From: Amoebophrya sp. A120
Taxonomy: Eukaryota > Protista > Dinoflagellata
Length of the DNA stretch: 64,000 nt
NCBI GenBank assembly: GCA_905178155.1
Contig: CAJINV010000005.1
Span: 8,595,591-8,659,590, forward strand
Direction of reading: 5' to 3'
Shown here one piece after another: positions 10,110 through 47,139 of this stretch; the stretch's first letter is position 1, and each line of letters opens with the position of its first letter. The translations under genes and the position numbers were made by a program. The notes beneath the pieces were generated by a model. It worked only from the letters and a program-made list of their open reading frames with translations. It was not told the DNA's origin and did not search any database.

Positions 10110-10675
10110 TGTTGGACTTTGAACACACCTGCCACACTGAGTGGCCAAAGCTTCTACCTTCGAGAGGTCTCTAACACGTTCAAACACTTCAATCTCTCAG
10201 CAGACAGGGCGAAAGCCTCTGGCTGCGTTGCATCCTGTGAAGATTCATCATGCAAGGTTCACCATAGTCATCACTCCATCACCACAGGCTCTGAGGCTCC
10301 AGATCTCTAGTCATTCTGGGACCTACTTCCCACTCTGTATGGGTGCGATTTTATCAGGGACGGAGGTCCCTGGTAAAGTTTTTATCTAGGTCGGAGCTCC
10401 TTGATAAAGTCTTGATCCAGGATTTGGCTAGATTCTGGACCATTCTGAGATCAGCCAAATCGGTGCCGTAGGAGCCTGCGTAGGGATTTGATCTAGGACC
10501 CGGGTCCCTGGTAAAGATTTTACCAGGGTCGCCGGTCCTTGATAAAATCGATCCGAACCAAGAGAGCCTGATCTACTCAAATTCTTCATCATTTGTATTT
10601 GGAGAGCAGGCATTTCGGGATCTCTGAGAAGCTTCAGTCTTGCGTGGAGGTAGGGTTTAGATCACATGACCAACA
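10110..10675 (-). repeat. 3' LTR of the copia element
   Basis: tgttggactttgaac...catgaccaaca. About 13 substitutions and 2 small indels versus the other LTR by hand count. The adjacent cccctccgc (10676-10684) is a polypurine tract on the minus strand. Confidence 0.95.
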
Positions 10676-10890
10676 CCCCTCCGCAATCGATGCAGTCTGT
10701 AGCCCCTAAGAGTCCTACTCTACCTTGTTCCTAAATAGATATAAAGTTGCATAAATTCCCCTCCTCGGGTCAGAATCCAAAGTCTACAGCGTACAACACT
10801 AAAGCTACTCCACTATCATCGTAGAAACTAGTATAGAAAGAAGCATCAAAATCATCCCCATCATCCGACTGGGCGCCAGGATGAGAAGAG

Positions 10891-13800: not shown

Positions 13801-15924
13801 TGACAGCCTTCTCAGCGGAAAGATAAGCTTCCCAGGAGTCAGCATTCGTCAACATCGCTATGGCCTCGGCGATCTCCTCACCATCGTCAAGCATGCCAAT
13901 AGCGCTCCAGTTCGCTGCGGCAAACGCCTCTGCGTTCTTCTTCAACTTTTCGAGCTGTGCTTTTGTGCGCCGAGAGCGTTTCTTCTTATCCTTGGCCCCT
14001 TTTGGACGTCCGCGGCCCGGTTTGGAGGTGCGGTTGCCAGCCACAACCCTCGCCGGTGCGTGACGCACCCTAACAGGACTAGAAGACGCTTCTCGAGCTT
14101 GTTCCCCTCCTCCATTGTTGCTCGCTGCGAGGTTCCCCTCCTCAGCTTGCGACAGTATAGGAGCTTCCGGGGACTCTACTGGACCTTCTTCCTCTCTGTC
14201 CAGTGTCTCCACTTGGAGTTCTAAGCCGGCGGTCGATTCCTCCGCGTGCCCCGCCCCATGAACCTCCAGGCGATGAGCCGAACGAGATTGCGAGTCTAGC
14301 CGTCCAAGCGCGGGTGGAACCGGTTGCGATGCGCCGCCTTGGAGATCTTCCAGGTAGTCCATCTGGACGAAGACTCCCTTCGAACTGGGTAGGAGCCGAG
14401 CGATGTTCTTGGCGAGTATATCCTCCCGGGACTTGACATCGCGAGTAGAATACTCGGCCCACCGATGCCCGTCTCTTGTCCGATCGTCTTGAACGAAGGT
14501 GCCCACGAGCCAGCCCGAAGACTTAGGACAAAGCCCGAGAAACACACCTCGACGAAAGGGCGGACTGAGCTTGGGACCTCCTTGTCCATCTCTGTCCGTC
14601 TTGATTTGTTCACGAAAGTAAACAAGACAACCAAAACGCCTGAGCAGGCCAATGCCTTGCTTCGCACTGTTCCTTCCTGTCCTCTTCTCAAGGATCTCTA
14701 TCGGAGTCTCTCCGTCATGCTCTGGCATCTTTGCATATTTATGCGGCAGCCGGTCCCAACAATCACCGCTGTAGACTATGGCATAGGACCACAGACGGCG
14801 ATCGACGTGAACCAACAGTGTGCGGCAGGAGCCGAACAGCGTCCGCATAAAACGTTCGCAAGTTCCGTTTTGCTCTGGATTGTGAGGAACAGTCGGAGCG
14901 TCACAGATCTGCAGCGATTGCATGACCTTGGTCATGTGCTCACACACTGCCCAGAACTGGCTCATTGTCCCGCCTCAGGAATCACGCGACCTTGTCACCC
15001 AAGGACAGTGACCAGTCTGCGCGAATGCCTTTGGTAATGTCTCCCAACTCCTCCACGCAGTCGCTCTCGTACAGAAGAGGCCTGGCAAAACACTTCTTGA
15101 TGGCATCACAGATACCAACAAGGACACAGGTGTGCTTCATGATAGACATGGGCTTCACACCGACACCGAAGTCAAACGCTAATAATTTTAGTGGTTGAGG
15201 TTTATAATTCTCAACGTTTCTTACTTTCGCATGTGGATTCCTCTGTCCTTTAGTTCTATCGCATTCGGGACCACTGACGTTGAGCCCGTCCACATGGAAA
15301 TGTCCAAGACGTCTGTGTAGCTCTAACTTAGTCAAGTAACAACTACTAGTAGATACCTCGGCGACAGACGTACAGACAAAGCCGTCCGCAGCATCTGCCT
15401 CCTGCAGGTCGAACAAGTTGCAACCAAGGATGGGAAGGCACATTCTGGGACGATTCTTTATGTCCAACACGCGGCCGGTACCAGTGTGAGCAATGGTTCC
15501 GCCGGTGCTGTGAAAGGTAAGCAAGCTCCCATCCTACTTGTGATGTGTTACCTTCACCGAGCCAAGGCGAAATCCTATCAGTGTCCTTTGGTAGATCTTT
15601 GAAATAAACACCATGTCGCAGGTTTAATTGGTTGGGTTGCAGTTCTCCTATAAATCCATCCCGTGCGCCAGCTGTTCCGTTGATGGTACAGCGCCGGCCC
15701 GTGATGTTCTTAAAATCATCAGCGTGCTTTGATAAGTATCTATTTGCACAGCTGTCAACTAGGTTTGCCTGCTTTGCACCTAGGTAGCTGGCTGCACAAC
15801 AATCAACAACAGACAACATAGCGACAGCAGAGTTAACCGAATCTACGAAACTCTTGTAATACACTTCATCCTCCTCAAAATTCAAACAACATCTTCCCCG
15901 TTCCGGATCTTGGTCATCGTCTCC
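10891..15924 (-). pseudogene. pol: copia pol (protease, integrase, RT, RNase H), frameshifted
   Basis: Protease LVDSCANRY; integrase LHRRLGH and PHNPEQNGTCERFMRTL; RT KARACVLG, TFAPV, DLDSAFLNA, KALYGLKDAPRAW, YVDD; RNase H FSDAGFA, STAESEYVA, WVDNQSAI. Confidence 0.95.
12165..13421. mobile_element. GC-rich non-autonomous TIR element inserted in copia RT
   Basis: 22-bp TIR tcaggcagccggcccg(a/t)ggcaa. GCTGCC direct repeat at 12159-12164 and 13422-13427. Removal restores PPIWAA|KHKTAVVKLHKALYG. Confidence 0.9.
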
Positions 15925-18136
15925 TCAGCTCGTTCCGGGCTTGCCGGATCCCGATCCAGCGCTAGCGTCATGCCAGACCCAGGCACCACCCCAGTCCTGG
16001 TAGACCGTGGGTTCACCGAAACCGGTGCACGCGTTGCCCCCTCCTTTGCCTTTGCCTTTGGGTTTCCCACCCGTAGACGCAGCAGCGGTAGGACACTCCC
16101 ACGCGTAGTGACCACAGTCATAGCATTTGTAGCACTGGGTATTCTTCTTGTACTCCTTGAACTTCTTGTCCTTCTTGCCCTTCCCCTTCTTGCGGGTAGA
16201 AGGATCACCGCCCTGGCTTGCGTGGACTTCGGCGGTAATTTTCTTTTTCAGTTTAGTCTTGAAACGCTTGAGAGTTTTTCCAGACATGAAAGCTTTACCG
16301 TCCTCATCGTTACCACTAGCCTGGGGGCGTTTCTTGGAAGCGGCAGTCTTGTCTTCGTCGTACTCAACCGCCGGGAACGCCTTGCCGAAGCTGGAGTTCT
16401 CCACCTTGTGCTCACCGTCCAGGCGGACGGCCCGGGGCGTGGATTCCGGCTATATTCCGGCTATGCATTGGCTAAATTTCTGCGCAGCCCGCGCGGCTTC
16501 CTTCTTCCTTGGGCCTGGGCCGCCCAAGCGCGCGGCGGCACCCTCCTCCCCATGTGTTGGGCAGCCGGGCGGCGGGTGCTTGTCGCGGCTGCATGTGCGG
16601 CCCGCGGCGCTAGTTTTTCGGCAGCCGCCCTAGCCGGGGCGCCGTCCTTGGCCGTTTTAAAATTTAAAAATTCGCAGCGTTTTCTTTCGGAATTTTCCGA
16701 AATTTTGCAGAGGCCGGCCCGCCTGCCCGAAGGAAATTTCTTCCAGAATTCATCCTGTCGCCGCCTGGGCGAGAGGAAAAATTTTAAAAGAAACCTTCGG
16801 CCGGATTCCGGCTAAAATCCGGCTAAATTGAGGATAAATTCCAAAAGAAATTCAGCTAAGTACTCAGCTAAGTACTCAGCTAAGTGCCCGGCTAAATTCC
16901 GGCTAAGTATCCGGCTAAATGTTGGGATAAATGCCGGAACAGGGAAAACGGGAAGGATTTGGGCCCGGGGGCCGTCCGGGCCCTCCGGCCCCCTCCCGAA
17001 GGACCCAATTTAGCAGAGCACTTAGAAGAGTATTTAGAAGAGTACTTAGCAGAGTTTTTTTTGGGGTCTCGACCCGAAATGCGGTCGCGAGTTAGCGAGT
17101 CCGGATGCAATTTAGCAGAGCACTTGCCCGCAGGCCCAGAAGGAATGTCCGGCGTTTTCCAGAAGGGCCTGCTTTGGTGGGTTGTCGGCGTGGCCGTCTT
17201 CGCAATACCGGGGTCGCGGAGTCGGGTCCGTCGCGCGCGGGCCGGGGGCGCTCCGAAGCCGCGCCGCGGCCGGAGTGCGGGCCCCGGGGAGCCCGGCCCG
17301 CCCGCTTCCGTCGTCTACGGAAGAACGGGCCGGAGCCCCAAATCGGAAGGGAGTGCGCCGCCTGGCCGCGCCACGTCCGGAAGTGCGGCCGCGGCCATTC
17401 GGCCTGCGCGCTTCCGGCTTTTCAATTTAGCCAGAAAATAGCGGCGGTTTAGCGCGTTGCCCCGCCCCGGGTCGTCCGCCTGACGACCGTCCTTGATCAT
17501 GGCCTGCAGACGGGTCGCCAACTTGTCACCCATCTGCTGCGTCGTCAGCTGGGCACCGTCCTCGACCATGCGCGCGATCGTGTCCTTGAAACCCCTGGAA
17601 AACATCTTGGGCAGGTAGTCTAAGACGTTCTGGACCTGTCGATCTTCAGGAGCACGAGCTAGGTCGGGCGAAAACACCGCAGGGGACTGGTCCATGACGC
17701 GCTTGACCTTGGCGAGGAAGGAAGGCGGGTCCTGAGGTTGGTCGCGGTCATCGAACTTCATCGATTCGAGACACGCAGCGCGGATTTTCTGCTGGGTCCT
17801 GTTCTGCTGGTTGTAATGACCTTCATCACGCAGCTCCAAATACAACTCTCCGGCATTCAGAATGTTGCAACTCGGGCGAGCGTGCAGCCAGGTCTTACAA
17901 GAACCAGTCAAGGACTTCAGCATCGCGGCTTTCAGGTTGCGCCATTTCTGAGCAACCGCCTCAGCCTGTTGACCGACTCCTCCGGGGAGACCGGGCTGAC
18001 CGAGATTGGCGACGACGTTGTCGAAGTACACTCCTAGTCCGAGGCGCTCGACCTCCTCACGGACAGAGCGATCCCATTCGATCCAGCCAGTCGCATCCGG
18101 CAGCTTCGCGGCGATCTCTGCGGATACCGCAGTCAT
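15925..18136 (-). pseudogene. gag: copia gag, interrupted by the insertion at 16420-17483
   Basis: ORFs 17315-18136 and 15925-16404 join in frame (MIKDG|EHKVENSS) when the insertion is removed. CCHC knuckle CYKCYDCGHYAWEC. Confidence 0.88.
16420..17483. mobile_element. GC-rich non-autonomous TIR element inserted in copia gag
   Basis: 20-bp TIR caggcggacg(g/a)cccggggcg. ACCGTCC direct repeat at 16414-16420 and 17486-17492. Internal 12-bp repeat arrays. Confidence 0.88.
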
Positions 18137-18205
18137 CTTGTTTTCTTAATGAATCTACTGCCACTAGTGTAAGTAGCACAGATTGGCGTCTAAGTCGCAG
18201 CGCAG

Positions 18206-18771
18206 TGTTGGACTTTGAACACACCTGCCACACTGAGTGACCAAAGCTTCTACCTTCGAGAGGTCTCTAACACGTTCAAGCACTTCAATCTCTCAGCAGA
18301 CAGGGCGAAAGCATCTGGCTGCGTTGCATCCTGTGAAGATTCATCATGCAAGGTTCACCATAGTCATCATTCCATCATCACAGGCTCTGAGGCTCCAGAT
18401 CTCTAGTCATTCTGGGACCTACTTCCCACTCTGTATGGGTGCGATTTTATCAGGGCCGGAGGTCCCTGGTAGAGTTTTTATCTAGGCCGGAGCTCCTTGA
18501 TAAAGTCTTGATCCAGGATTTGGCTAGATTCTGGACCATTCTGAGATCAGCCAAATCGGTGCCGTAGGTAGGAGCCTGCGTAGGGATTTGATCTAGGGCC
18601 CGGGTCCCTGGTAAAGATTTTACCAGGGTCGCCGGTCCTTGATAAAATCCGAACCACGAGAGCCTGATCTACTCAAATTCTTCATCATTTGCATTTGGAG
18701 AGCAGGCATTTCGGGATCTCTGAGAAGCTTCAGTCTTGCGCGGAGGTAGGGTTTAGATCACATGGCCAACA
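18206..18771 (-). repeat. 5' LTR of the copia element
   Basis: tgttggactttgaac...catggccaaca, lying just upstream of the gag ATG at 18136. Confidence 0.95.
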
Positions 18772-22042: not shown

Positions 22043-24648
22043 ATTGGTACGCACGGCCAGGCGCCGGACCTGGATAAAAGCAGAAGCCAGTCGTAAGCGA
22101 AGGCCCCCCCCCGGGTCACGATTTATTATAAATATCGCTGCCGTCCTCGTTCCTGCTGGAGTGTTGGACTTTTTACGAGTTTGACACTGCTATCTCACTG
22201 TACTACACGACCCGGAAAAGGTACTGCTCACGAATGGATCGAGGAATTATATTCTTATTATCGAAAAGCGAGGGACTATAGCAAAAGCAAAGAAAACAAG
22301 TAACGCAATAAACCCTTTTGATCTCCAATGCCCGTACCCGTTCGTGTAACAAGATAGTTTTTTCGAACAAGGTTCAGATGCAATGGGAACGGTAGTGGAG
22401 AAGGAGATATCTACCAGAACAAGACTGAAACATGTGAGAGGCTGACACCGCCCAGGACGACCAGGTCATCCAAAGCGGTAGGCTTTGATCGTGACTTTCG
22501 GCCTTGATACTCAAAACAATATTTTAGAATTTGCTTCCTGTTCTAAAAATTTCTCCATCGTGGAGTTTTAAGTTGTTCAACAGGAGCATAGCATCAGTGC
22601 GTCTACAACTTCTCGCAGGAGTATTGACCGCTGGTTCTGATTGAATGAAAACTGAAGGTGGAAAGTAAAGTATACAAACGTAGCCGTGGAGAGAAAAGCT
22701 AAAGCAAAGTATAAGTAGTGCGGTCCCACTATTAAATCTTCCCGAAGATAGAGTTGGGCCATCGCCATTGGATGATGTATAAGTAGGAACAACCAAACAA
22801 CTACACGGGAAGTTGATGTTGAGCAAAGAAACGGCTGGTGGCCCCTTGTTGTCTTCTGGGAACTCCTGCACTGGCAACAAGAAGGGGTACTATCTTTATC
22901 TATCGATCATTTGAAGAATTCGGAAAGAAAAAGGCCTACTGGACGAGGACAACTGCCTCGTGTGTTCTTGGGCGGGGTTTCCAAAGCGGTGGCTGGAGGA
23001 CGGGAGAGCAAGGACATCATCAATGCGGTGCTGCTAATGGGATACCTGCATTTGAAGGATCAGCTGCCGTCGAAGATGGAGGAGTTGTGAGAAGCTAAAG
23101 CGGGGGAACTGGAGGGAAAGAGGAAAAGGGATTGTAGAGGACGAAAAGAAGGATATCTATTTAGGCACTACAAGGTTATAAGCTTATTTACTTATAGATC
23201 TGGCGTCTGACCTGCGGGCGGCTGGAGAATGCAAGAAAGACTTTCTGGAAAAACTAAAGAACGAAGAGACCAAGCACATGCAAACCGAAAACAAAGAGGG
23301 ATAGATATAAAAAGCACTACGTGTATGATTTTTGATTTATTTAAAGGTAAAAGACTACAAGAAAACACTAAGGGATAGAGCGTAGAAACGACATCGAGGA
23401 TTTTTTCGGATCACGTCGTACCTAGGGCGACTGTGTTTCAAAAAATGTAAATCTCGATCGGTCGGCACTCGCTGGAGGTAATGTTCACATCAAAAACGCA
23501 AATCTGTAATGCAAATTTCGAAGAACCCACAGCACAAAATCGGAACATAACTTTTTTACAAATCGTAGATGAAAATGCAACTCAAAGAAGTCGGCTCGTA
23601 GCAAAGGGAAAACAGGATGTCGGTCTCTCGGGAAATCGATCGTGCAAAAAGTGATGTCGTGCAATGCTACAAATGTCGTTTTTATAGAGTTTAAAGCGCG
23701 TTTTCAAATATTAGCTCTTCAAAAATTGTCACACAACTGTCTCCCAGGGTCATGTCGTGCGCTTAAAGAATTCACGGTAGGCACGGTTAGACTTTACCAC
23801 TCGAGTCCGTTTGTTAACAGCTCTCGAGTACATGACCCAAAAAACTGCATGACAGATTTGAAAAAAGACGGTGATGATGATTTAGAGATTTGGAAAAAGA
23901 AGAAAAACAAAAACAAAAACAACACCACGCGATGGGTATTCGAGTTTGAAAATAGGTTTGCTTTGTTTTGATTTTTGTGTTCTACCCTTTGTACGTGACC
24001 AGTAGACAGAGCAAAGGTAAGACTCTCGAGAAATATTTGTTTTTGTGGTTTGTATTTGTTACAGTGTCCTCGACCCCGTCGCTGGTTTTCGTTCCAACGG
24101 CGGCTCGATTATAAAGAACTTCAGGAAGAAGTGCAGTCATGAATTCAACAAAAATGCTGAGATAATAGTTAAGAAAACAAACGACACGCATTGGATAAGG
24201 GCCAGGAACGTAAACAGCTGCTGACACGATTTCAGTAGCATTACAAACAAGAAGAGAAGTAAGAGTGTGTGCTTTATCATAGGCTGGTTTGGACTTGATA
24301 AAAAAGTTTTCGGAGCGGTACGACGTGGTCTCACATCACGATAAAGGTTTCATCTGTAGCGAAGAACGAAGTAGCACTGGAGTGAGAGAACTTATTTACA
24401 GCAGATTTGTGGTGTATCTGATGAAGTAGAAAAAACAACTTCATCGGCGCAAGAACAAGAAGCTACTATTTTTACACGAGAAAGCCAAGAAACGGTTTTG
24501 GTGGAAGAAGAGTCGCACAGTGTTGCGGGTCCTCGTTGGCGTAAACTACAACTACAACGTAAATGCTATGCAAAAGTAGTGCAGTTGTAGCTCTAGCTGT
24601 AGGTGTACTTGAGATCATCTGACTTTGTAATTGCTCAAAGTCATTGGA

Positions 24649-24902
24649 TATGGATTGCAAAAATGTCTGGGTCTGGAAGGTTGGAACTTGTAATGCTAGC
24701 TTTCCATACGTACAGAATCTGTATTGCATAAACAACAAAAGGCGCAGCCTCTTTTCTACAGGCAAAAACGCAACTTCTCATGCGGATTGCCTATGAGAAA
24801 GCGTTCTGGAAAGTTGTCATGCTTGGTTGCATTCGGAACTGTTTCCATCATCCACATTTTAGCATCACAAGTTTCCAGACCCAGACATTTTTACATCTGA
24901 TA
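24649..24902. mobile_element. Introner (family A) in the probable 5' UTR of SPEF1
   Basis: tatggattgcaaaaatgtctgggtctggaa ... ttccagacccagacatttttacatctgata, flanked by ttgga/ttgaa. Confidence 0.8.
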
Positions 24903-24972
24903 TTGAATTGCGCCACCACCCCGTCCGGTAGTTCTTGGGAAATAACTTGGATTTGCACTTCTATCTTCAAAC

Positions 24973-27900
24973 ATGTCGATACGTGCCTCTTATCCTGTGC
25001 AAAAGTTTCGTACTCGTATAAATGCATTACAAATTTCCTCAGCATGAGAAAGAAAATTTGTAATGCAGATTTGCCTTGGAAACAAGATTTGTAATGCTAA
25101 ACTGGCATTTGTACGATACTTTTGCACAGGATACCTCTGGGCCGCCGTCCTCCGCGGTCGTAAAAGCCCGGGAAATATCAACTGCAGAAGTGTCTGGGTC
25201 TGGAAAGACGGAACTTGTTATGCGCATCTCGCAACACAAACAAAAATCTCTCATGCATAGACAGCAAGAGTTGCCCATTTTTTTCACCGGAATAATAGGC
25301 GATTCGTCATGCGGGTTAGGCAATGCCGCAGCTTCTCAAAACCTGTGATGCTAGACCTTGCTTGCCAGACCTTCCGGGTCATGGAAAAACAGCATGAGAA
25401 AAATCTGCATCCTTCCAGACCCAGACACATTTGCATTTGATAGGAAATCGAGTCTGAGGACGAGATATTATCCTGTGCAAAAGTAGCGCACTCGTACTAA
25501 TTGGAGGCATGCATGACAAATTTCCTTTCCAAGGTAAAACAGCATGACAAAATCAATTTTTCGAAGACTACCACTTGTAATGCAATTTATACTAGTACGA
25601 ATATGATGCTAATGCTTTTGCAATTCATAGATACAACGAATCTACAACTGGATGGACGACATCGAGCTTTCGCGCCCGAGGAAAAACATCGCCCGAGACT
25701 TCGCCGACGGGCTTCTTGTTGCGGAAGTTGTTTCACAGTATTTCCCGCGACTAGTCGAGCTTCACAACTACAGCAGCGCCCATTCCCACGCCCTATCAAA
25801 GGTAAAAATGTCTGGGTCTGGAAGATTCCGGGATTTGTGATGCATATTTTGTATGATCCATGACGCATGCAATGCATGATCTAGCATCACAGATTTTTAG
25901 AGGGCTTCCTGATGCCTATTGCGCATAAGAAATGCCCTCTCCGTGCAACACAAACTGGATCCCTGTTGCTGGTCACGCAATGCAGATTTTTTTGGAATCC
26001 AAAGACAGCGTGACAAGTTGCAATTTTCCAGACCCAGACATTTTTGCAATCCATACGCCCAGAAGTCTTACAACTGGAATACCCTGAACAAGAAAGTTTT
26101 GCTATTACAATGAAAAATGCCCCCTCCCCATCAAAACGGAAATCTGTGATGCAATTTTGTGGTCACAAGTCAGCTTTGTGATGCTAGAAGGCAAAAGATC
26201 CGGACTGTAGTGCTGTCTAGCGTGGGAAAGCCTTGCAGCTCCAGGATGACAGGAGGCAACTGGAAGTGGGAAACAGCATGACAGATTGCCTGCAATTTAG
26301 GCCGCAACTTCGTCTCTTGGCCTTCTAGCAATACAAGCCCCCGATTTGTGTACTCAAATACAGCATCACAAATTCGCGCATCTTCCGTTTCCGATATGGG
26401 GTGGGGGGATTTTTCCTTTCGATATTTGCGAAAGCTCGGCTTTCAGTTACACCCCGGAGACATCGACGATGTGATCAAAGCCGTGCCCGGGGCGATAGAA
26501 AAGGTTTCTATATTTTTGTGTTTTTATTCTAAAATGAAGAATTTGATGTCCCTGGCAACATTTCGGACGATCGTGCCAGAAGATTTTCTTCTGCTGCCAG
26601 GATGATCGTGTAGCTCATGCTTGCTGTTGTACCGTTCAGAATGAGATCTTGATCCTATAATTCATGGTGCTGATCGACTACATGAACATGAGTGGAGGGG
26701 TACTAGAAAATGAAAACGTAAACATCATCACAAAATAAAAATGCAGGTGCTCGTCCTCTTGCAACACTACATATCAAATGCAAAAATGTCTGGGTCTGGA
26801 AACTTGTGATGCAAGTCAGGGAAAAATGCGCATAAGTATAGTAATGCACTGCAAAGCATGACAAGTTTTTCCTTGGTTCAGAGTTGCGTACTCCGCATGA
26901 GAAACTGCGTTTCTGCATGACAGGCAATAGAAGCCCTTTGCGGTCGCGCAATACAGAGCTCAGAGTCATGCCGGACTAGCATGACAAATCCCGGAATTTT
27001 CCAGACCCAGACATTTTTGCATTTGATACTACATGGCACGGTACAAAAGAAGAGCTGAGGAGGGGAAGGACCAAAGTGTCATCGAGGCGGAAGAAAATCG
27101 TGCGCCGTCGAGCTCTATCCTACGCAGAAGTATCGTACTCGTAGTGATTGCAGCCATGCATGACAAATTTATTTCTCAAGTTAGACCCGCATATACAAAT
27201 TTCATTTCTCATGCTTCGGAAACTTGTCATGCAATAGAAATAGTTTCTACTAGTACAACGATACTTTTGCACAGGATAAGCTCAAGTAGCCGGCCAGTGT
27301 CCGCGAGAAGGAGCAGCAGCACGACGACGCCAGCAGCTGCTATGGGAGTGTCAGGATTGAAATCGTCAAGGTTAAAATTATAGTTTGTCATGCATAAAAT
27401 GCAGCCCACGAAGTGCCTGTCTTGCAAAAGTAGGCAAGGGGTGCAGATTGTAAGCCTGTTGAGGGGTAGAAACTGAGCTGCTACAAACATTAGCATGACA
27501 AAAGGCGTCTTCCTTACCCAAACAGCATGACAAAATGGATTTCGGTTCTACCCAAATTTGTTATGCGCCACTTGGAAACTGGGTCAGTCACAACTTTCAT
27601 CCATTTTATGCATCACAAGTTATTTCAACTTTGTCGATTTCAATCCTGACACATCCATAGCAGCTGTAGGAGTGCCCAGCACGACCACGAGTGGAGGGGT
27701 CATGAAGTCCGATGTCGCAGCTCCAGGTGGATCCGCAGCTGCGATATGGCAGCGTCAGGATTGAAATCGTCAAAATTGAAATTAGTTTGTCATGCATAAA
27801 ATGCAATGCAGAAAGTGCTTGCCTTGTAGAGTAGGCAAGGGAGGCAGATTGTAAGCCTGTTCCGAGGCGGTAGAAATAGAGCTGCTATTAAAGTAGCATG

Positions 27901-28478
27901 ACTACATCAAAAGGCGCCTTCCTTATCCAAACAGCATGACTACAAACTGGATTTCAGCTCTACTCAAATTTCTCATGCGCCGCTTAGAAATTGGGCTTAC
28001 AACTGGTATCGATTTTATGCATTACAAGTTATTTCAACTTTGTCGATTTCAACTCTGACACATCCATATGCGATGGGGCGAAATAAGGGGTCGATGAATA
28101 AGCTCCATCCGCAGGAGCAGCAGCAAATGGTGAATCAGCAGAACGAAGAATCTATCCTGTGCAAAAGTATCGTACTCGTATAAATGCAAATCTTGCATTA
28201 CAAATTTTTTTCTTAAGGTAAATCCGCATGACAAATTTTATTTCTCATGCTGAGGAAATTTGTAATGCATTTATACGAGTGCGATACTTTTGCAGTTCAT
28301 AGAATCCGCCCTGACAATACAGGAACTGCGGGAGACCATACTCCTCATGAGCGAGAAAATCAAAAAGCTGGAGCAACTGGCTCGGATAAAGGACGCCAAG
28401 ATCGACAATTTGCAGCAGAAATTGTCGCAGACTGCGGGGGGAGGCGGGGTGGGTGGGTCGTCGCTTCTTGCCAGATGA
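24973..28478 (+). CDS. SPEF1: Sperm flagellar protein 1 / CLAMP homolog (CH domain + C-terminal coiled coil); 10 introner introns and 1 GT-AG intron
   Basis: Spliced reading: EDEIQRIYNWMDDIELSRPRKNIARDFADGLLVAEVVSQYFPRLVELHNYSSAHSHAQKSYNWNTLNKKVLRKLGFQLHPGDIDDVIKAVPGAIEKVL..TIQELRETILLMSEKIKKLEQLARIKDAKIDNL. Introns 24991-25133, 25176-25442, 25469-25629, 25794-26055, 26103-26423, 26504-26746 (GT-AG), 26772-27028, 27116-27278, 27341-27659, 27745-28068 and 28153-28301. Confidence 0.93.
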
Positions 28479-29832
28479 GATCTTACAACTTTTACATCAA
28501 AAACGGTAAGAACAGGAGGGCCTGTAGATGAAAAATTCGACTCTTCATATTTATCCCGACCTAGTAGAACTGCTAGTTGTACCGCGTCACTCTCATTTCC
28601 ACATGATGTCTTTTTTTTTCAAGATAGAAGCAAAGGCAAAGCTCCTTCTGCACCTGCAGGATGACCTACAACTTCCATATTATTGACCACCTTTGTTATT
28701 GAACAGTAGCAGAGCAGAAACAAAGACGAAACCATTTCAGCAGAGCAGAAAGACTAAGGCCAGCACTCTGACTGTGCGAGGCAGAATTATTAATAGAGCC
28801 TCGTACAACCCCCTCTACGTGCCGCACGGTGGAGGTCGACGCCGCACAGAAATTATGATTTATTATACAAGCAGAAACAGAACAGACGCCGACGTGGACG
28901 TCGTCGTACAAATAGGTTTTTTTGAATACAAGCGCTGTGGTAGTAATTAAAATTATCTGGTGGTAACCCAAAGAAGCCAAAACCTAATCCTAAAGTACAC
29001 TTGACCTCCACAACTGGGATCATTGTTGGCGGGGCCACGCCGCCTCAATTGGTACTACTAAGTGAAAAAACACACTGTAGTACTTTTTACGCAAAGTACA
29101 TCATGTCGATGTGCAGCTACGACGTCGCACTAGGAGATCAAATTGGTAGTGGCTGGACCTGGAGCCGCACTTGAAATAAAAATGTGTACTCACTGCTGTA
29201 AGGAGTCGGTTGAAAATTAAAGGTCATGCGCAGGCGCAGTTCAGGCGCAGGAACAACCAGGATCAAAATTAATCACAAATGCTGTCAGTGTTGAAACGAT
29301 CATCACACTATACACGACCCGCGTCGGTTTGAAAAATTGCGTTTGTGCTGTCACCCGCCGTCTTGTCGGGTTGATGAGTTTTTACGGTACAATCGAAGAG
29401 CGTGAAAATGAAAATAAATCCAACCCCGAGAGGTCCGATCCGTCCAATCAAAAAGATCAATGGAGGACTGTGCAAAGTCGGAAAGATCAATGGCACTGGA
29501 AAGATCATGGCACTGGAAAAGTGGAAAGATCAATGGACCACGAGGACGCTCAGATAGATCAGTCAGAAGCTTTGTCGTGACACGACCCTTTCCAGCCAAG
29601 CACAGGTACTATTTTGAAAACATCTAGTAGTCATCTACTACAGACGAATTTACACATAACTTTACGCTCCTCTTCACTAGCACAAAACGTATCGCCATCG
29701 GCCTGCTCCTGTAGTAGTACAACTCACCGTAATAAAAGCTGTTTGTAGTACGACGTAAGTTTTCAGAAAATCATACTTGCACCTTTATTTTTGCTCGTTC
29801 CATTTGAAAGGAAAAAGCATCAAATATCGTAA

Positions 29833-31327: not shown

Positions 31328-34300
31328 TATATATTGTCAGAAATGGCCATCTTTTGGTAATCACGCAACACAGATTTTTGCATGATCCAGACTAAGCATG
31401 ACAAGTTGCATTCCTCCAGACCCAGACACTTTTACATTTCATAGAGGTCCTACAACACCAAGCACAGCCGCGTCAGCTGTGTATCAAAAGGAAAAATCCC
31501 CCCACCCCATATCGAAATGGAAATCTGTGATGCGGGATTTGTGTACACAAATCGGCTTTGTATTGCAGGAAGGCATCGCGGCCAGATCCCCTGGCTATGT
31601 AGGGGCGTATCGGTCTAGTTGTTCGGCATGGCAAACGGCTCCCCTTTAGGCCCAACAGCATGACAAATCGCCTCCATAATGGGGGCGAAGCTTTTGCCCT
31701 TGTCTTCTTGCAAGACAGATGTGATTTTTTGTGACCTCAAATCAGCAACACAAATTTGCGGAACATGCCTTTTCGATATGGGGAGGGGGGATTTTTCCTC
31801 ACCATACTGCGTAGTAGTATTTTTGCGAACTCCATTACCTTCTCTGTGGCTGTCATCGCACTGCTCTACGGAAGTGTCAGGATCTTCGAAATCGACAAAG
31901 TTCGAGTTGAAATTTTAATCTGTGACGCATAAGATGCCACGCAGAGAAGTAAGTAGAAGTGCGACCCTATGTATTGCAGACAGTACATGTACGAGGGGGG
32001 CAACCGCTTCGAGTCCCGCTGAGGGGCAGGAGTTGGACAGCTGACTAGCATGACAGAATGGAGCTCCTTTGCCTTAAACAGCATGACAGATTTGCTTCCG
32101 GGGCGGGGAAAGTTTATATGTCTTGCGCCGACCACCACTATGTATAAAGTGAAAACGAGAAAAATTGGTGCTGTCGATTTTACGCATGACAAATCAACTT
32201 TGTCGATTTCGGTCCTGGCGCTTCTATAATATGCTCCTGCTCTCAGATTGTTCCACGACGACTAATCCCACGGCTACCCTTGCGTGGGCCCTGACCCACA
32301 AAATAACTTCTAGTCCGCGGGCTGGATCACCACTTGTCGCCGACGGGCCAAATGCTGGTCGCCGCGCCGCCCGGATACCGGGCACCTTATGCAATACAAA
32401 TTTCCCGTACATGTACAACATGCATCACAAATTTCAAAAATTTGGAGCGATCACAAAGTTCAAAAATTTGGGTCGATACAACTTTTGCCTCTCCTCGTCA
32501 TAGCCTACTCCTGACCACGATCGGGCTGGAAATGGGGCCAGCAAGCGAGCAGGCCCCCACAGAGACGACCTTTGCCGACCGCTGGACCGTGTATACAATC
32601 GCGCCGCGACCGGAGAAGAAGGAAGGAGTGTCTTCAACCACGAGGCCCGGAGTCGTGAATGCGCCCAGCAGAAACGATCTCGCACCGCCACTACAGTCCA
32701 GCGGACAGGAGGATCCCGCTATCGGTGTAGCAACCGCAGCGAGAGTGGCGCAAGCGGTGGGCCGCGACGATGCTGGACCGGCGGCATCGGCTGCGGAGGT
32801 TTTCGCGACCCCCTCCTCATCGTCACAAATGCCAACGTTGCCTTCGCACCACGGACCGATGGGGTAGAGAGCGTCGTGATGGAACCGAGAAAGACGAAAA
32901 TCATGACTTTTTTGAGAATAAGGGCTTGAAAATCAAAATATTACGTTTTGCGACTGAACCTTCCGGTATTGGTATCGGTTACGTTGAGCACATTTTTGAA
33001 CCAGAACCATAATTGCTCATCTGGCAGTGCTACTGCTGCTTGTCTTCCTTCATGCTCAAAAGCAACTTTCATAATTCTGCGAAAATTGCAGCCCTGCGTC
33101 TTGTGCTACCAGTTTTGGTCACCACCTCTTTTGCGGTTTGCAAACAAATGCGAAATAGAGAATAAAGATCGACATCGAATGAATGGAAGTAGTTTTTGTT
33201 TGGAATAGTTTCAACCAAATATTTCGATTACCAACTCCTGTTTGCCCACACGAGAAGAGAAATTCTATCCGACGAAAATGACATGAACGAAGGAGAATTC
33301 ATGCCTGGTAAGAGAAAATCCAAAACGAATAGTGCCAACTATCACGATTGCATCGAAGAAAAGGACACAAAATGGAACGCGTATCCCCGTAAAGCCCCCA
33401 ACTGATTTGGAAGCATGCTGCTTTTTTGTTTTTCGTTTTCTGTTGCGGGAAACGCATGACAAATTCGCAGATCGCTTTTTGTTGCGCATGACAAGTTCGA
33501 AGCTTGCCGTCTGTTGCGGGGGATGCATAGCCACAGGCGCAAGTCTGAATCTCATACATAAACAAGAGGAATCTTTACGGGGATACGCCTGGAGGCAACG
33601 CATCTTCTGCAAGTCCGCAAATTCGGCACTGAAGAGCATGATTTGGTTGCCACGGTCCATCCCGCGGATGCGCTCCATTTTCGAGTTCACCGGGAAGTGG
33701 CACGTGCGCCGGCACGTTTCGCTGTGTGTGTTTCAGTTTCTTGCTTTGGATCGTTGGGTCTCACATCAGTTGCACTCGCACAGAGCGACGACAGGAATTT
33801 AGTTCCCTGCGGCGCCAACCAGATAAACGGGCGGAGCAAGAAGGGGCAAAATAAATATTAGGACTTGGGGGCTCAGTCAATGTGCAACCATGGGCCGAGT
33901 GTTCAGGTACATGTTGCAAAAACATTTATCAATTTTGCAAGTCTGCTACTGTTGCTACTAGTCACGACATAAGACTGACAGTCTGCGAAGCTGTGCAACG
34001 ACAACGCGTCGAGTGCGGAACTGCTGCTGCTGCTGTCTTCGACCCATGGTTGCGAGACGATACCTTTTTAGTTTCCTCGACCTTGTTGAGCTTCCGGCTG
34101 ATCTGGTCGCAGTACTGGTTGATCGCGGAGGTGATTCTCTATCAAATGAAAAAAGAAAAACCACTGCAGCCATTAATCACTCACAACACAGCTTGGCTTC
34201 GGTTCCTATTGTTCTCAATTTACTATTGCCATAAAGTGGGAAACAAAACCTAAGAGGAACCGAAACAAAATTGAGCTGCGGATGATGACGGACAGGGGTT

Positions 34301-34643: not shown

Positions 34644-37582
34644 CCCGGCTACGTGTTCGTGGAACAGGATGTGGACGAGGGCATCCTTATAGACAAAACC
34701 GAACCTACAAAGGAGTCTACCCTAGCGCAGGAGAAGCTGGAACAACTCCGTGACGACATTGCCAAAGCATCGCGACCGATTCCATTGACGCTAGAACAAC
34801 TCCGTCAACGCATTCCCGAAGAATCGGAGACGCTGAGAAAACTTATCCTGAGGAAAAAAGTCCCCGACACGACCCCAGAGCTTATTTCGTGCGGATTTGC
34901 ATCTACAGGAGTTACCAATGTGTAAATCTCCATTTCGCGTCTACTTCACGAGCAGAGGCGTGTCTACAGTTGTGGTCTTTCCGCAGTGGAAATCAGTTTC
35001 GATGCTGTAAAAGAAATTACAACTTATTTATTAGGAGATGGCTTTCTGATCCGCGGCTGCGGCTCTCCTTTAGGTCCTCGATAAAGAATTTGCACGACAA
35101 CACTTTTCGAGAACGTTGCTCGACTCCGTCCAAACAACTTCTGGATTTGTGTTGCAGAGTTTCCGCTTGGACTATGGGCACTAGTTGGGGACGTTTTCCC
35201 GCAGGATAGCTCTACGTGAGAAGTTATGAAAAGGACACCATGCGGATGTGGTCTGTTGGTGACGAGCAGCTATTATTTGTTTTTGTGCTCAAGAACAGTA
35301 GATATTATCGTCGAACCTAGAGGAGGTGGAGCGCCAGGTGCTGACTTGTCATGTCAGACTCAGAAGGGTTCTCTTCTTTTTGATAAATATGTATGACTCT
35401 CTTGCCGACTCCGACAAGAATTGTTTTATATATTTTCCGCGTTAACTGCAATTGTGTCTGGATCTGGAAGGATCCAAGCTTATGCTTCTAAGTTTGAATC
35501 GTACAAAAAGAAAAACCTGGAATGCATGAAGTTGAAGCGCAGAAGTTGATACCCGCTTCGTTTTAATTTGTTGCGCGCATTTGAATTTATTGCGCGTGGA
35601 CACTGCACAAGCTTAATCGAAACTGCTGAGAGGCCCAGGCCGATGCGCGCCGCAGTATTGAGTACTGGCGACGTCAGAAGTACTTTAAATGCTCTCAGAA
35701 AACTTTAAGGAGCAGTAGCCCGAACTTCTGGGGCTGCAAAATTATACCTTTGCAGCTGCAAAGGTATAATATAACTTTGCAGGGGCCACAAGAGTTACTG
35801 CGCAGGATCACGCTTAGAAGCCGCACAAATCGCCACATCCTACTTGAGTGCTTCGCCTCCATAAAACTATGCTCACGCACTGGAGAGGGTTTTAGAGACT
35901 GAACGGAAACCGATTGGACAGGAAGAATCGTGCGCCGTGCGCTCCTGCCGCCCACAAGGTACCTAATTTATTCTCAATCTATGTAACGAATTCCAGACAT
36001 CACATTCTAGGCGTCACAAGTAGGACTAGGTCGCGCAGCATCAGCGCGGACCTCGTGAGGGCCGGAATGGGTTAACCACCTCTGTGGCCCCATTTTTGTA
36101 CACAGAATTCCGACAACCGTCGGAATTTGCCCGTGACCGATGCCCAAGCGGACGGTCAGCGAGAGCAGGTGGGGAGGGGCCTAACCTCCCGCGACTGCCA
36201 CGCGCGCGCGCGTTAAGGTCACGTACCGATATGGCGAAGCTGATGACGCTGGTCGCTAATGCAGGTGCGTCCTGGGCGACTGGAGCGCGGGTCGTACGAC
36301 CCGAATTTGGACGAAAGTCCACCGAGGTGGACCATCCCGTGTGCCGACCCATACCGGTAGGCACCGTCTGTGCCACTGGTTCAGCCGGAACCCCTGCTGG
36401 TTGATGCACCTCTGTGCGCACTCTGGCAGGCTAGTAAGGATCTAGGATGTGAGGCTGTGAACGGGGTGCGCTTTGCATGCTTTGATCTGCTTATGCCAAG
36501 GAGCAACTCCGTCCATTACACACTTAGAAGAACCGCGTGCATTTATGAGGATGATTAATTTGACACCACACCGGCCGAGCATAGTTGCAGCCACCTCTGT
36601 GGCGCGTTGACTAGCTAGGAACTGCGCGGCCTAGGTGCATACGACAGCGGGGTCCGATCTATGTCCTCGGTGGTGCGGCGCAATGCGACGAGACAGGACA
36701 GCCGGAGGGCCACCCTGTAGACGCGACAAAGCCGGCGGGATACGCGTGGCGGATGAGGAGCCACAGGGCGGCGATTTCGGATGGGGGTTTGGGCCACGCG
36801 ATCTCGGACTTGTTGCAGCCTCTGTTGCACCCGGCGCGGCGACCTCTCGTCGCAGCGCTGGAGCACGGTTCGACCCACGTCTGTGGGCGGACAAGTGCGA
36901 CGCCCGCAGCCACCTCTGTGGCGCGGACGTCGCGGCGCGGTCCCTGCTGCGCGCCTCGCTGCTGTATCTAGTAGTACACAAGACGCTGCGAAGCAGCGCA
37001 GACACGCCTTTACTGATACAGAGCCGGAGTTCAGCACTACTGTGAAGGGTGTGACCTTTTGACGAGAACATACAAAGTAAAGCTGGCAGCCGTCGAGGGG
37101 CGCCAGCGTTCTGGGGATTTGGGAAGAAGTTTGTGTTCGCGCCAAGATATAGCGAATTCTACCCAAATTACGTCATGGATCAGGTACCACCAGGGCGGAC
37201 TTGGATAAACTTTGGAAGGAGATTCAAAACCAGCAAAAATTCGTCGAAGAACTGCTCAAGGAGCAGAAGGTGGCGGAACAGCTGAGGCGGCAAAAAGAAT
37301 ACAATTCGAACGTGTTGAGGCAGCGGCAAGAAGATTTCGCAGTGCAAAAGCATCGTATATTAGATTCGAGATTCGTACTAGACCACTACAACATTGGTCA
37401 CGCAGTATATTTTTTTAGACAAAAAATTGGAATTTGTCATGCTGAGGACGTTGTGCTATTTTTATTTCGCAAAAAAACAGCAGATGATCTTCATCAACAT
37501 GATATGCTGTATCTGTCATGCTACACTTACTGCGATTTTTGGTGCGACGACTCTTACTTGTGCGGTACTTTTGTACAGGATG

Positions 37583-38591
37583 AAAAGCGGGATATCAACT
37601 GTAAAAATGTCTGGGTCTGGAAGAATCCAACTTGTCATGCTGATTTTGGATTCTAAAAAAAATCTGTATTGCATGAGCAGCAAAGAGAGTCCAAGTTTTG
37701 CTACACGGAAAGAGCATTTGCTACACGGGGGTGCGCAAGAAACCACAACAGAGAAAAAGATCAAGCTCGGGTCGCGCGCGATGCTCGTCCCATTCGTTTT
37801 TTCCGACGGTTCACTTCCTTCATCAGGGCCTTGCTCAACCCTGGACCAGAACGAGTAGGACTAAGGACCCAAGAGGTAGGCACTGTAGCGGAAAGCTGGA
37901 GCAAAACTATTTTCTTGGAAAAAGAACCCAATAGGAGCCGACCTGCGTGGATGGTTACAAAACAGGTAGCTTGGCCCCAAATGGCAATGATCATTGGGAG
38001 CAGCAGAGCGCAGCAGGACCCCGGGACTGCAACAGCTCACCCCTGTTTTAGCTTAGAAATACGCAGTGCGCCGAGTATGCCACTACCTCGACCCCTCAAG
38101 AAAAGAAGTAGCCCCCCCAACTACACACTCGCCGTCCGCGATCAGGATGCGATGCGTACTAACCAACATTGTGCGAACCGAGATCCCGCGGGGCACAGGG
38201 TCTGGGCGGCTCGAAGCAGAACGCGCAGCACAAGCGGGAGACAATACATCCAAAGGTGGGGATGGTCTCAGGTCGTTCAGGTCCGCCAAGGGTTGCGTCT
38301 CGCTATCAGGGTTTCGCCAACTCCGTGGGGGCGTTGCGGGTATCTCCCTAAAACACCAAAACCGGCACAAATTGGGCCGGCAGTCCGGGTAATTGCTCAC
38401 CGAACGGCTTGTATGGCGAATAAGGTGCTCGACGAAGGAAGAAGTAAGCATGTAAGGAGCACCTCCGGTTGGTAGAGCAATCGGCTACCGAGGCACGTCA
38501 GGGGGCGTCGCTACTTCAATTCAATTCAATGCAAAATGTGCATGACAAACCTGGCAATCTGTTCCAGACCCAGACATATTTGCATTTGATA
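37583..38591. mobile_element. Family A introner enlarged by an ~800-bp nested insert
   Basis: tatcaactgtaaaaatgtctggg...cccagacatatttgcatttgata with CGGGA direct repeat. About four times normal length. The insert ends in (ttcaa)3. Confidence 0.75.
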
Positions 38592-41500
38592 CGGGACGCG
38601 AAGGAACAACAACGGAAAAAAGACCTGGAAGTTCTGGAGAGCGAGTTCGCCAAATTGACGAAAGAGTTGGAGCAGCTGCAGCATTACGCACTGGCACCGC
38701 AAAAGCATCGTATAAGTCCGATACTCGTAGACCACTATAACACTGGTCGCGCAGTACAATTCTTTGGACAAAAAATGGAATTTGTCATGCTGACGCTGTG
38801 CTATTTTTATTTCGCAATAAAACCCGCAGATCATGATCTTCATCGTCATATGCTGTATCTACTGTCATGCTACAATTACTGCGATTGTTATGACGAGTCT
38901 TACTTGTGCGGTACTTTTGCACAGGATGAAAAGCGGGAAGCGAAGGAGGAATGGCAATTGCTTGACGAGGAACAGGATCCCGCCATGCGGCAACTTTTCC
39001 AGCAGTCCGCGTCTTCTTCTTCTTCTCGGACTCGCGGCAATTCATCAAAAGCACGGCGGAACATGAGAAGTACTAAATAGAACTCAGTCTGTAAGGACAA
39101 CTACGATGCGTCTCTTTTGCCAACAACTTCTGGCACTTTCATCAAAAAGGAGATCATGTCTAGCAGTATTGGCACTGACCGTGTAGTGGAAAATTATCGA
39201 GGATGAACAAAATCTAAGTCACCCTTTCGCACGAAAGAACCGCAGTCGTGGTAGTGATTCCTGCAACAGTACTGCACTTTTTTTTTTACTGGGTAGAAAT
39301 TACTTCTTTTCTACTTCTCGTGTTTTATCTTCTTTTCTTTACCCGGTGAGAGCCTAGTAGTACGCAAGTGAAGATCATGGACATTATCATTATACATAAG
39401 TGATCGACAGTATTTTTGGAAATCGCATCAAAATCAAAGAGCAGTACGAGGGCGCGCCAAGCACGCACGTACGAAAGAAGCGGCATTTCGATTTTCATTG
39501 AAGAAAAAGAAATAATCACTGTCAGTTGAAAAACGAGAACGGTTGTAATTCTAATTTTGGCGTAGCTTCTGCAGCGCCAACATTTCAAATTTATCGAATG
39601 ATAAACTAAAACAGACACAGATTCCCAGTATGAATTGAAAACTCTACTTTCGGAATTTCAGGATGAGCATAGAGTAAAAGTAATGGCGGGAGCGTAAAGA
39701 TTCACTGCGGTTAAAGAATTCAATATACAAAAAAAGCACGTACGTGCCTTATCTATCAGTCGAAGTAGTTTTGAAGGAAGAACCAAGTAGTTTTGAAAGA
39801 AGAAGTAGTTTTGAAGGAAGGAAGTACTTTGACAGCAATTATCTCCAAGAACAGCTGCAGTTGCACTTTATTATTAAGATTCCTACAACTCAAAATGCGC
39901 GAGCGCGCTAAGAAAGATAGAATCCGTCGTTGTTCAAAAACAGAAAACGCAATACAAATTACTACTAGTTACAGAAAGTGCTTACCTCCGAAAGTGCTTA
40001 CCCCTCTACTACGCCTCGGTGTAGCAGAAGCAAGTTGCGACTTCAGATTTTTGTATTTGAACGCAACAAAACCTAAGATCATCCCAAAAACTACGCTTTA
40101 GACCACACAAAGAAGCAAGCAAGTTAGACGATCGGAACCCGAACACAAAAACTAAAAAATCTACTACTACGACGGTCGAGCTGATGAAGCGTTGTTTCGC
40201 GCCAAAAACGAAATGCGTAACTTTGTCTTGCTACAGGTGACAGGAGGAATAAGCAGCAGTCATTACAAGACTACAAGGATTGCATCTCTAACGAATGAAA
40301 GTGGCTCGCATGCATGTTCTCCGTCGTATGAGTATCGTTATGTGCGTATCTTGTCTTCGTTTGTTTTTGTGAGTACAAAGTGTCTCCGGAATCCAATTCC
40401 ACTACCAAGATGAACAATTAGCTTTTTTGAAAGTCGACAAAGTTGGAATGATTTCTCATGCAGAAATTCCAAGGCATGAAGTGCCTCTCTTTCAGGGATG
40501 GAAAGTGAGGCCGACTGTCGGCCCGTTTGGGATCTGCGATAGAGCTGCTAAAGTAGCATGACAAAAGACGCCTCCTTTCCCTAAACAGCGCGACAAACTG
40601 GATGTAGGCGATGCGGAAATTTGTCATGCACCGCTTGGAAATTGGGCTTCCAACTGGTATCGATTTTATGCATCGCAGATTATTTCAACTTTGACGATTT
40701 CGGTCCTGACACTTCCATATGAAAAACGAGAACGGTAGACATAGAAGATTTATGGAAAAGAACAGAAATGTGAGGGCGCACGGAGAAGGGCAACAAGTGC
40801 TAGTTTTTATTTCCATCAAAAAAATAAAATTATCATGCTTTCGTTTGCAACGCCAACAGTATTATTTATTCAAATTTATTTTTTATAATTTGACTCATGC
40901 TTATTTTGATGAAGTTGAAAACGCGCACTCAAATAGGACCTAAGAGTTAGAGTGAGGCTACTAAGGCGAGCATTATTACTATTCGCCCTCGAAAAAGAAG
41001 AAGAACCGTTGGCACTGTAGTATGTGTATGGGAGTCGTGCGAGGAAGTTGTAGGTAGTAGTACAACTTCTATGCCTGCTACAGAATAGAAGTTGAAGGAT
41101 TTATTTCCCTGATATAATCGGGGCGTCCACGACCGAGATGAGCAGTTTAGTTTTTTGGCAGGAGCAACACCATATTAGTCATGGAATCAGTAGCACCATG
41201 GTCGTGGCAGTACTTGTTCTCAAGAGGCGGAAGTGTTCGCAGCAGGAGTATTCTTATTCATCTTCGACCGGTGTCATTTATTTGGTGCGTGCAACTACTG
41301 CCCTCCACGTACAAGAAGGCGCACTAGTTTCATTGTTGGGGGCTAATACCACGACGTCGGCGCCTAGGTCTACAGTGTGTTGCTACTGGAAATAAAGCAG
41401 AGTTTATTCCTCCTCCTCCTCCTACTGGAAATAAAGCACGCTGTAGTAGATCATGTCGTTGTCGATGTGCTACGAGTACGACGTCGCACTAGAAGATCAA

Positions 41501-47100: not shown

Positions 47101-47139
47101 TCCTCCCGGCTGGGGTAGTGCGTACCACGGGAGAACGGG

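Follow-up and report, generated by a model that had tools for sequence, protein, structure and literature searches.

The window analyzed here is a stretch of 64,000 nucleotides from the dinoflagellate Amoebophrya sp. A120 (contig CAJINV010000005.1, positions 8,595,591 to 8,659,590 of the forward strand). Its four plus-strand genes are interrupted by 50 elements of 110–450 bp that start with TAT, end with ATA and carry inverted repeats, and outside these TAT...ATA elements stand 5-bp direct repeats, perfect in 34 of the 50. The main finding is that such elements are removed from transcripts in both orientations, with cuts that fit a single register following the direction of the transcript. When each element is taken out together with five nucleotides (nt), stop-free frames of 421, 901, 290 and 1193 amino acids (aa) are opened, as opposed to 217, 483, 120 and 298 aa unspliced; in the short genes taking two or eight nucleotides in place of the five also keeps the frame, and the longest frame is opened by five only. 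An exon of the SPEF1-like gene matches Pfam CH_2 (4.6e-18), and the Pfam cobW match of the cobW-like gene is weak (E 0.00092) and under the cut-off. These frames and the CH_2 exon bear out the first-pass annotation in its placing of all the named elements in plus-strand genes.

The three intron pairs that had been singled out by that annotation as one family in opposite orientation are indeed such pairs. In global alignments, the elements at 24991 and 28153 are 66% identical on the same strand and 84% as reverse complements, those at 1362 and 5827 are 63% and 79% identical, and those at 27745 and 55566 are 62% and 87% identical. All six run from TAT to ATA at exactly the coordinates given and are flanked, respectively, by the 5-bp repeats CCTCT, GAATC, ATTCC, CGGGC, TGCGA and GCAGC. 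For a wider comparison, metagenome contigs were scanned with the end of one family, which gave 148 loci, all from a single assembly, that share the window's element families with identities of up to 93%. For 291 of the 404 locus elements a host strand could be assigned with a coding model, and the 113 without a strand call were dropped; on the window, with one gene left out at a time, the model was right for 41 elements, wrong for 0 and undecided for 9. The locus calls presuppose that the frame is open at the site and do not amount to proof from RNA, and the loci were chosen via the end of one family. Together with the 50 window elements this set comprises 341 elements, 296 of them in 21 families and 45 in no family; degenerate or pseudogene copies in the window (e.g., 8497-8655 and 31-45 kb) were excluded from the gene sets. 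Sorted by orientation relative to the host gene, 17 of the 18 families with at least three members are found in either direction, and the counts in the majority orientation add up to 181, with 175.5 ± 5 expected at 50:50 (p 0.16), which is near 50:50 overall.

That both orientations are spliced, as was first proposed from the letters of the window, is supported by contigs of the putative RNA run X1 that lack elements of either orientation; for the pair 1362/5827 the support is the reading frame alone. One X1 contig of 1130 nt has pieces at record positions 17-264, 401-559 and 999-1130, as predicted when the 11 SPEF1 elements, each with five nucleotides, and one GT-AG intron are gone, a removal seen as two length sums and not as single joints. 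Another, of 3995 nt over 52.8-61.8 kb, agrees with the prediction at 16 of 16 checked coordinates, and each of its 13 singly listed joints removes an element plus five nucleotides. In this single molecule the 150-bp family is spliced in both orientations (54402 and 56736 in one, 54988 in the other), and the element at 55566 is also gone. Altogether, X1 lacks 35 of the 36 elements of the SPEF1-like gene and the gene at 52.9-63 kb, with 15 seen as single junctions and 20 by length sums; the element at 61977 is outside the support. That GT-AG introns are missing from the same contigs argues that the X1 contigs are complementary DNA (cDNA).

The exact border of a junction is ambiguous, because the 5-bp duplication lets the junction slide, and it is the imperfect duplications that resolve it. 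The register, k, is defined as the number of bases of the left duplication copy kept in the RNA; eight of the 11 imperfect duplications in two genes gave informative junctions. The features concerned are listed here, with the target-site duplication (TSD) and the allowed k where it is restricted.

1362-1514, plus strand: 150-bp family element in the cobW-like gene (1-about 2800); TSD ATTCC; removal by frame only.
5827-5980, plus strand: 150-bp family element, orientation opposite to 1362, in a 900-aa frame (about 3600-8190); TSD CGGGC; removal by frame only.
24649-24902, plus strand: element in the 5' untranslated region (UTR) of the SPEF1-like gene; imperfect TSD TTGGA/TTGAA, left copy kept through position 4 (k at least 4); X1 piece ends at 24647.
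24973-28480, plus strand: SPEF1-like gene of 281 aa with a CH_2 domain; its coding part has 10 elements and its 5' UTR one more (24649-24902), and it contains one GT-AG intron; X1 contig.
24991-25133, plus strand: 150-bp family element in the family's 'minus' orientation; TSD CCTCT; intron at the fitted register 24990-25137; X1 removal by length sum.
25469-25629, plus strand: 150-bp family element; imperfect TSD GATAT/GATAC, right copy kept at position 5 (k at most 4); an X1 piece begins at 25629, with 0 other letters.
26504-26746, plus strand: canonical GT-AG intron of the SPEF1-like transcript, without a hairpin (z -0.6); required by the length sum.
27745-28068, plus strand: 320-bp family element; TSD TGCGA; X1 removal by length sum.
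28153-28301, plus strand: 150-bp family element, orientation opposite to 24991; TSD GAATC; intron at the fitted register 28152-28305; X1 continues at 28301 (record 999), the predicted place.
52925-62800 (end approximate), plus strand: gene of about 1185 aa (52.9-63 kb) that holds 25 elements from 7 or more families, and also the GT-AG intron 61776-61911.
53274-53598, plus strand: element; TSD CTGTG/CTGCG; k 4-7; X1 joint 53272-53603.
54177-54333, plus strand: element; TSD CACCT/CACGT; k 4-6; X1 joint 54175-54338.
54402-54556, plus strand: 150-bp family element, ends TAC and AAA, spliced; X1 joint 54396-54557.
54988-55132, plus strand: 150-bp family element, opposite to 54402 (64/80%), spliced in the same contig; X1 joint 54982-55133.
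55566-55883, plus strand: 320-bp family element, orientation opposite to 27745; TSD GCAGC; X1 joint 55560-55884.
56736-56893, plus strand: element; TSD CCGGC/ACAGC; k 3-5; X1 joint 56733-56897.
60321-60768, plus strand: element; TSD GGCCG/GGCCA; k at most 4; an X1 piece begins at 60769, with 0 other letters.
62134-62406, plus strand: decayed element without the internal motif; TSD ACGAC/GCCTA; z of the fold about -0.3; sole non-slidable junction, intron 62133-62410, k exactly 4; X1 loose end, 62132 joined to 62411.

With the junction at 57917, where k is at least 2, these values leave k=4 alone as a fit to eight of eight informative junctions; the chance of one shared register is 0.0014 if cuts are uniform over 0-5, before allowing for the post hoc choice of register. 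The intron is then laid out as /N-TAT-S...S-ATA-NNNN/ (slashes mark the cuts), one nucleotide before the 5' repeat and four after the 3' repeat, and of the six registers only this one gives U at +2 and A at +3. The non-slidable junction at 62134, which rests on the loose end of one contig, has the ends CT..CT. The mirror register, k=1, is excluded by all six junctions that have a lower bound, and therefore the register follows the transcript and not the orientation of the element. The end signal is palindromic yet read with polarity, and a palindromic end code allows two-way use without symmetric chemistry. The symmetric recognition that had been proposed thus does not hold: the offsets are 1 nt and 4 nt in the transcript direction, and the terminal triplets decay unequally at the two ends.

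This unequal decay was counted over the 341 elements, in which triplet positions 1, 2 and 3 deviate in 2, 2 and 12 cases at 5' ends and in 15, 8 and 4 at 3' ends. Positions 1 and 2 taken together deviate at four 5' ends versus 23 3' ends (p 0.0003), and three of the four 5' cases resemble false calls. Among families of at least seven members the counts are 0, 1 and 7 versus 9, 6 and 4 of 273, with position 1 only being significant (p 0.004). The difference between the ends points to selection, acting in the direction of the transcript, that holds the U at +2, the case for constraint being weaker for A at +3 and for A at -7. Ordinary directional signals, which were said at the outset to be absent, were not found: at the fitted register GT-AG occurs in 9 of 341 elements, which as a set lack the GT/GC...AG ends of U2-type introns, 3' AG is at background level (32 of 341), and neither an excess of G at +1 nor a strand difference in branch-like motifs is seen.

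The hairpin closed by the inverted repeat that had been proposed is upheld by prediction, as at least ten end-to-end pairs were obtained for 35 of 36 introns, with z below -3 in 26; joining of the ends by secondary structure, as in euglenid introns, is thus predicted for this set. The terminal triplet has a pairing probability above 0.5 in only 23 of the 36, repeat positions 4-8 match at two or fewer of five in 129 of 341 elements, and the spliced intron 62134-62406 folds no better than shuffled sequence. As to selection for RNA pairing, G-U and A-C combinations number 377 and 368, with no overall excess; selection of this sort, to be expected under an enzyme that reads structure only, is thus not clearly seen.

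By their sequence, the window elements are the introner elements of the A120 type described by Farhat et al. (2021, PMC7789003), which were reported to have an inverted repeat of TAT, seven bases and AAA and direct repeats of 3-5 nt. The same inverted repeat (TAT, followed by seven looser bases and three or more A) emerges from position counts over the 341 elements and the border repeats are in the same range; the elements also fall into repeated families (21), are removed from transcripts and have non-GT-AG ends. The 320-bp family has TATGG and lacks the A run. A generic element finder returned 45 elements in the window compared with 1 and 1 in two shuffles. At the 148 loci, the 5-bp repeat is perfect for 220 of 297 end pairs, with 3 pairs showing a 4-bp and 0 a 6-bp repeat, the pairs having been located without the terminal 8 bases and the best-repeat pair picked where several were possible. 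One locus (L107), likely the orthologue of the end of the cobW-like gene, contains an extra 150-bp copy flanked by two GAGGA where the window has a single GAGGA. [quoted passage not shown] They would be DNA elements of this non-autonomous, inverted-repeat kind, able to insert in both directions and duplicating 5 bp each time. An autonomous partner with a transposase was not found in six long candidates or 74 long open reading frames (about 0.8 Mb, partly redundant); the five of six long repeat-bounded candidates that were inspected comprised one chance pairing of adjacent elements and four that carry unique inserts without a convincing coding frame. Viral contigs gave 0 matches to the 150-bp family end, and Rfam covariance models gave 0 hits at gathering score on the window, those of Group I/II and other catalytic introns included. 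Long copies of the 250-bp family (0.6-1 kb), in which ends and duplications are intact and the interior is unique cargo, were noted at 37593-38591 of the window and in loci L021 (632-1465), L046 (3862-4492) and L070 (11016-11987).

Inside the elements, GCAT[GCT]ACA[AG] occurs 129 times in 12,043 element bases as opposed to twice in 8,692 exon bases, on both strands (450 versus 516), and copies on the same strand are spaced in a phase of about 10.3-10.4 bp (taking one copy per family, the mean cosine is 0.38, versus a null of 0 ± 0.08). Spacing peaks were noted at 20, 31-33, 53, 82-85, 92, 112 and 123-124 bp, and the form GCAT[GCT]ACAAAT, on both strands, is common to otherwise unrelated families (e.g., 28153-28301 and 2398-2646). 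The reverse of the motif, ATTTGTNATGC, is reminiscent of a Sox-Oct composite site. Most simply, the phased motif would be a DNA signature of transposase binding. Marking of the ends at the DNA level, another earlier proposal, is not needed by the data, and the motif is missing from one spliced intron, 62134-62406. The probable GT-AG intron 61776-61911, the 5' junction of which agrees with X1, includes two copies of the phased motif, resembles the right end of an element at 61891 and has a direct repeat of 4/5; it is possibly a decayed element rescued by canonical sites, and its likeness to known families is only local.

How the elements are removed was considered with these results in hand. 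About an even chance is given to a modified, U1-less, hairpin-guided U2/U6 spliceosome that ignores the GT-AG rule. The transcript loses the element and five nucleotides, through cuts that fit one base before TAT and four bases after ATA, and the same palindromic code at both ends would make either one usable as the 5' site. The repeat, folded as predicted, would bring the ends together in place of intron definition by U1 and U2AF, N-U-A-U-S would be read by the spliceosome like a GUA 5' splice site, and the 3' cut would be set by distance from the stem and not by AG, with the A at -7 as candidate branch point. Since the 1+4 split would sum to the 5-nt duplication, an insertion would be harmless in any sequence and in either orientation. 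The GU-A consensus of 5' splice sites resembles the register with U at +2 and A at +3. A changed spliceosome is favored because of this GUA-like register, the constrained +2 U, the report by Farhat et al. (2021, PMC7789003) that A120 has U2, U4, U5, U6 and, of 89 spliceosomal proteins, 83, whereas U1 was not detected, and the precedent of Fritillaria, where non-canonical TIR introns are handled by a changed spliceosome (PMC11282704; PMC13326754); GT-AG introns also lie in the same transcripts as the elements. Two-way use does not rule out the spliceosome, contrary to the premise made at first, since in Polarella introner classes are reported to give spliceosomal introns either way (bioRxiv 10.1101/2020.10.14.339549). 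Several points count against a spliceosome of this kind. No lariat or branch is among the observations, which consist of two contigs and one loose end from the single run X1, the RNA status of which was guessed, and which cover eight of the 11 imperfect duplications. G at +1 is not enriched (109 of 341, like the flanking exon; 18 of 50 in the window, p 0.17), the 16 combinations of +1 and -1 are not clearly different from exon dinucleotides (p 0.08), branch-like motifs number 31 sense versus 32 antisense and 177 versus 182 of 341, with no branch consensus, and the pyrimidine fraction shows no sense-strand bias (0.536 versus 0.537), so that neither branch nor pyrimidine tract of the U2 type is seen. 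The apparent invariance of A at -7 in the window (50 of 50) was weakened by the larger set, where it is replaced in 4 of 341, an excess conservation that is weak (4 versus 12, p 0.07; 4 versus 7 of 273, p 0.55). New stem changes that keep a wobble pair are in mild excess (127 versus 95, p 0.037), not beyond the inner control (p 0.16), and a reading of structure is possible. Finally, the second spliceosomal step is reported to depend on the +1/-1 pair (PMC13326754), which is free here, and Euglena introns with a similar positional code are released as circles, for which the authors favor non-spliceosomal factors (PMC12501133; PMC11282704).

The free +1 and -1 and the lack of a branch motif lend themselves to a rival explanation, possible though doubtful, in which a structure-guided endonuclease and an RNA ligase, independent of the spliceosome, cut the hairpin-closed intron 1 nt and 4 nt from the stem; it takes up the structure-guided cut-and-ligate system first proposed from the window and resembles what has been put forward for the nonconventional introns of euglenids. 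The predicted folds and the undetected U1 (PMC7789003) speak for it as well, as does the parallel with staggered cuts outside the stem in the Euglena code 5'-N3CDG...CH'GN5-6/R (PMC12501133; slash for the vertical bar) and with its circular products (PMC11282704). However, the pairs next to the cuts are often weak, as counted above, 62134-62406 folds like shuffles yet has the same register, G-U pairs are in no overall excess, and a candidate enzyme is lacking: Pfam found no ligase, nuclease or transposase among the 74 long open reading frames, a tiny part of the genome, the one RVT_2 match belonging to a long terminal repeat (LTR) element of the window. We consider unlikely the fuller version of this idea, that a second, spliceosome-independent mRNA splicing system reads /N-UAU-S...S-AUA-NNNN/ with a 1+4 stagger matched to the transposase's 5-bp duplication and erases tens of thousands of insertions in RNA, possibly by an enzyme descended from the mobilizing machinery that binds the phased motif. 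That motif, with its enrichment, its presence on both strands and its helical-scale phase, would fit an array of DNA-bound protein, and a protein on motif and repeats (e.g., a domesticated transposase) might tell co-transcriptional splicing where the intron lies; this is improbable, since the mobilizing transposase accounts for the motif without a splicing role, an intron without the motif is spliced, and the chemistry is not supplied. Excision from DNA, by the precise action of a transposase or in the manner of internally eliminated sequences, with the 'RNA' contigs being empty DNA alleles, has very little to recommend it. Loss of an element with one duplication is the outcome of precise excision and X1 was only guessed to be RNA, but the idea is contradicted by the loss of GT-AG introns from the same contigs, by contigs of run X5 that span exon-element borders at flank depth (43-59), and by kept letters that follow the transcript (6 of 6) and not the element. 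Least credible of all is an ordinary spliceosome using GT/GC-AG sites from the repeat or duplication, as in the introners of Polarella and Aureococcus. Those introners also work both ways (bioRxiv 10.1101/2020.10.14.339549) and the joint 52965-53236 can be read as GT..AG, but at any one register from 0 to 6 GT-AG is found in at most 9 of 341 elements, and ordinary GT-AG use is contradicted by the junctions seen, CT..CT at the non-slidable one included.

Other features of the window were noted in passing. An LTR retroelement on the minus strand at 10110-18771 has TG...CA LTRs of about 565 bp, the 5-bp duplication ATTAG, the same in length as that of the introners, and the RVT_2 (Copia-type) match; its middle includes GC-rich stretches of low-quality appearance. 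At 31345-33362 the two ends of the 52.9-63 kb gene (about 53126-54238 and 62373-63253) recur as an almost identical, incomplete copy that lacks the middle and is joined to another gene fragment, and an X1 loose end at 53126 fits such a chimera. The regions 37200-39000 and 43800-45600 hold duplicated, partly decayed gene copies with elements that lack clean ends, a possible control for decay free of splicing constraint. GC-rich tandem arrays with internal palindromes (GGAATCCTC / GAGGATTCC units) at 46358-50024 are possibly subtelomeric or satellite. Over 24400-28700, X8 and X9, two runs of raw reads under the same species label, have element ends with other flanks and no SPEF1 exon, as if from a diverged strain that shares the families. 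Exons at 52.8-62.3 kb are not covered by runs X2-X4, and neither this blank nor that of X8 and X9 counts as evidence. Joints from run X5 were set aside because cross-mapping repeats obscured them.

Much of the element biology is in print already: the elements and their hairpin have been described, together with a call for an alternative mechanism (PMC7789003), and so have two-way introners with ordinary ends in Polarella and Aureococcus (bioRxiv 10.1101/2020.10.14.339549). The A120 introners of Farhat et al. share with the present set the inverted repeat, short direct repeats, many families, a predicted hairpin, no coding capacity and no conserved dinucleotides, and an alternative mechanism was proposed there. 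In the accessible part of that paper orientation is mentioned for genes only and not discussed for the elements, and splice sites are called variable relative to the hairpin, the border being unknown (Fig. 3 legend), whereas one register fits eight of eight junctions here; by its legend, supplementary Fig. S23 may partly anticipate this result. The introner-like elements of Polarella glacialis and Aureococcus have GT/GC/GA-AG ends taken from element or TSD and are biased in orientation, in contrast to the free ends and near 50:50 use found here (bioRxiv 10.1101/2020.10.14.339549). Closer in layout are the nonconventional introns of euglenids, an unrelated lineage in which circles have been shown (PMC11282704): they share a MITE-like origin, terminal pairing, cuts at fixed distances outside paired triplets, a 3' overhang longer than the 5' one and junctions that slide on direct repeats (PMC12501133; PMC11282704), but their code, N3CDG...CHGN5-6/R (PMC12501133), differs from N-TAT-S...S-ATA-N4, and their signature is not present here. 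Fritillaria borealis likewise has transposon-derived introns with TIR, TSD and non-GT-AG ends, attributed to a changed spliceosome, though with preferred ends AG-AC and AG-AT, U1 kept and U2AF duplicated, whereas the first and last bases look random here (PMC11282704; PMC13326754). Near 50:50 use, a fixed register, polar constraint and a phased motif were not found in the literature within reach of the search, which excluded supplementary figures S14-S25 of Farhat et al. and most subscription papers, and the accessible parts of later papers (PMC12130899, PMC9860276, PMC11453091) add nothing on orientation or register. Apparently, then, a described class of elements follows an undescribed rule.

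Over 60% of the introns of Amoebophrya are spliced although their ends are not conserved, and a single register turns this absence of a splice signal into a definite code. It points to the sites at which a branch should be sought (A at -7 or -5) and to the key bases (U at +2 and A at +3), and it lets gene finders place tens of thousands of junctions. Amoebophrya would also join Euglena, as the second lineage whose cuts are set by distance from a terminal repeat, and would be one in which the host can render a transposon harmless in both orientations.

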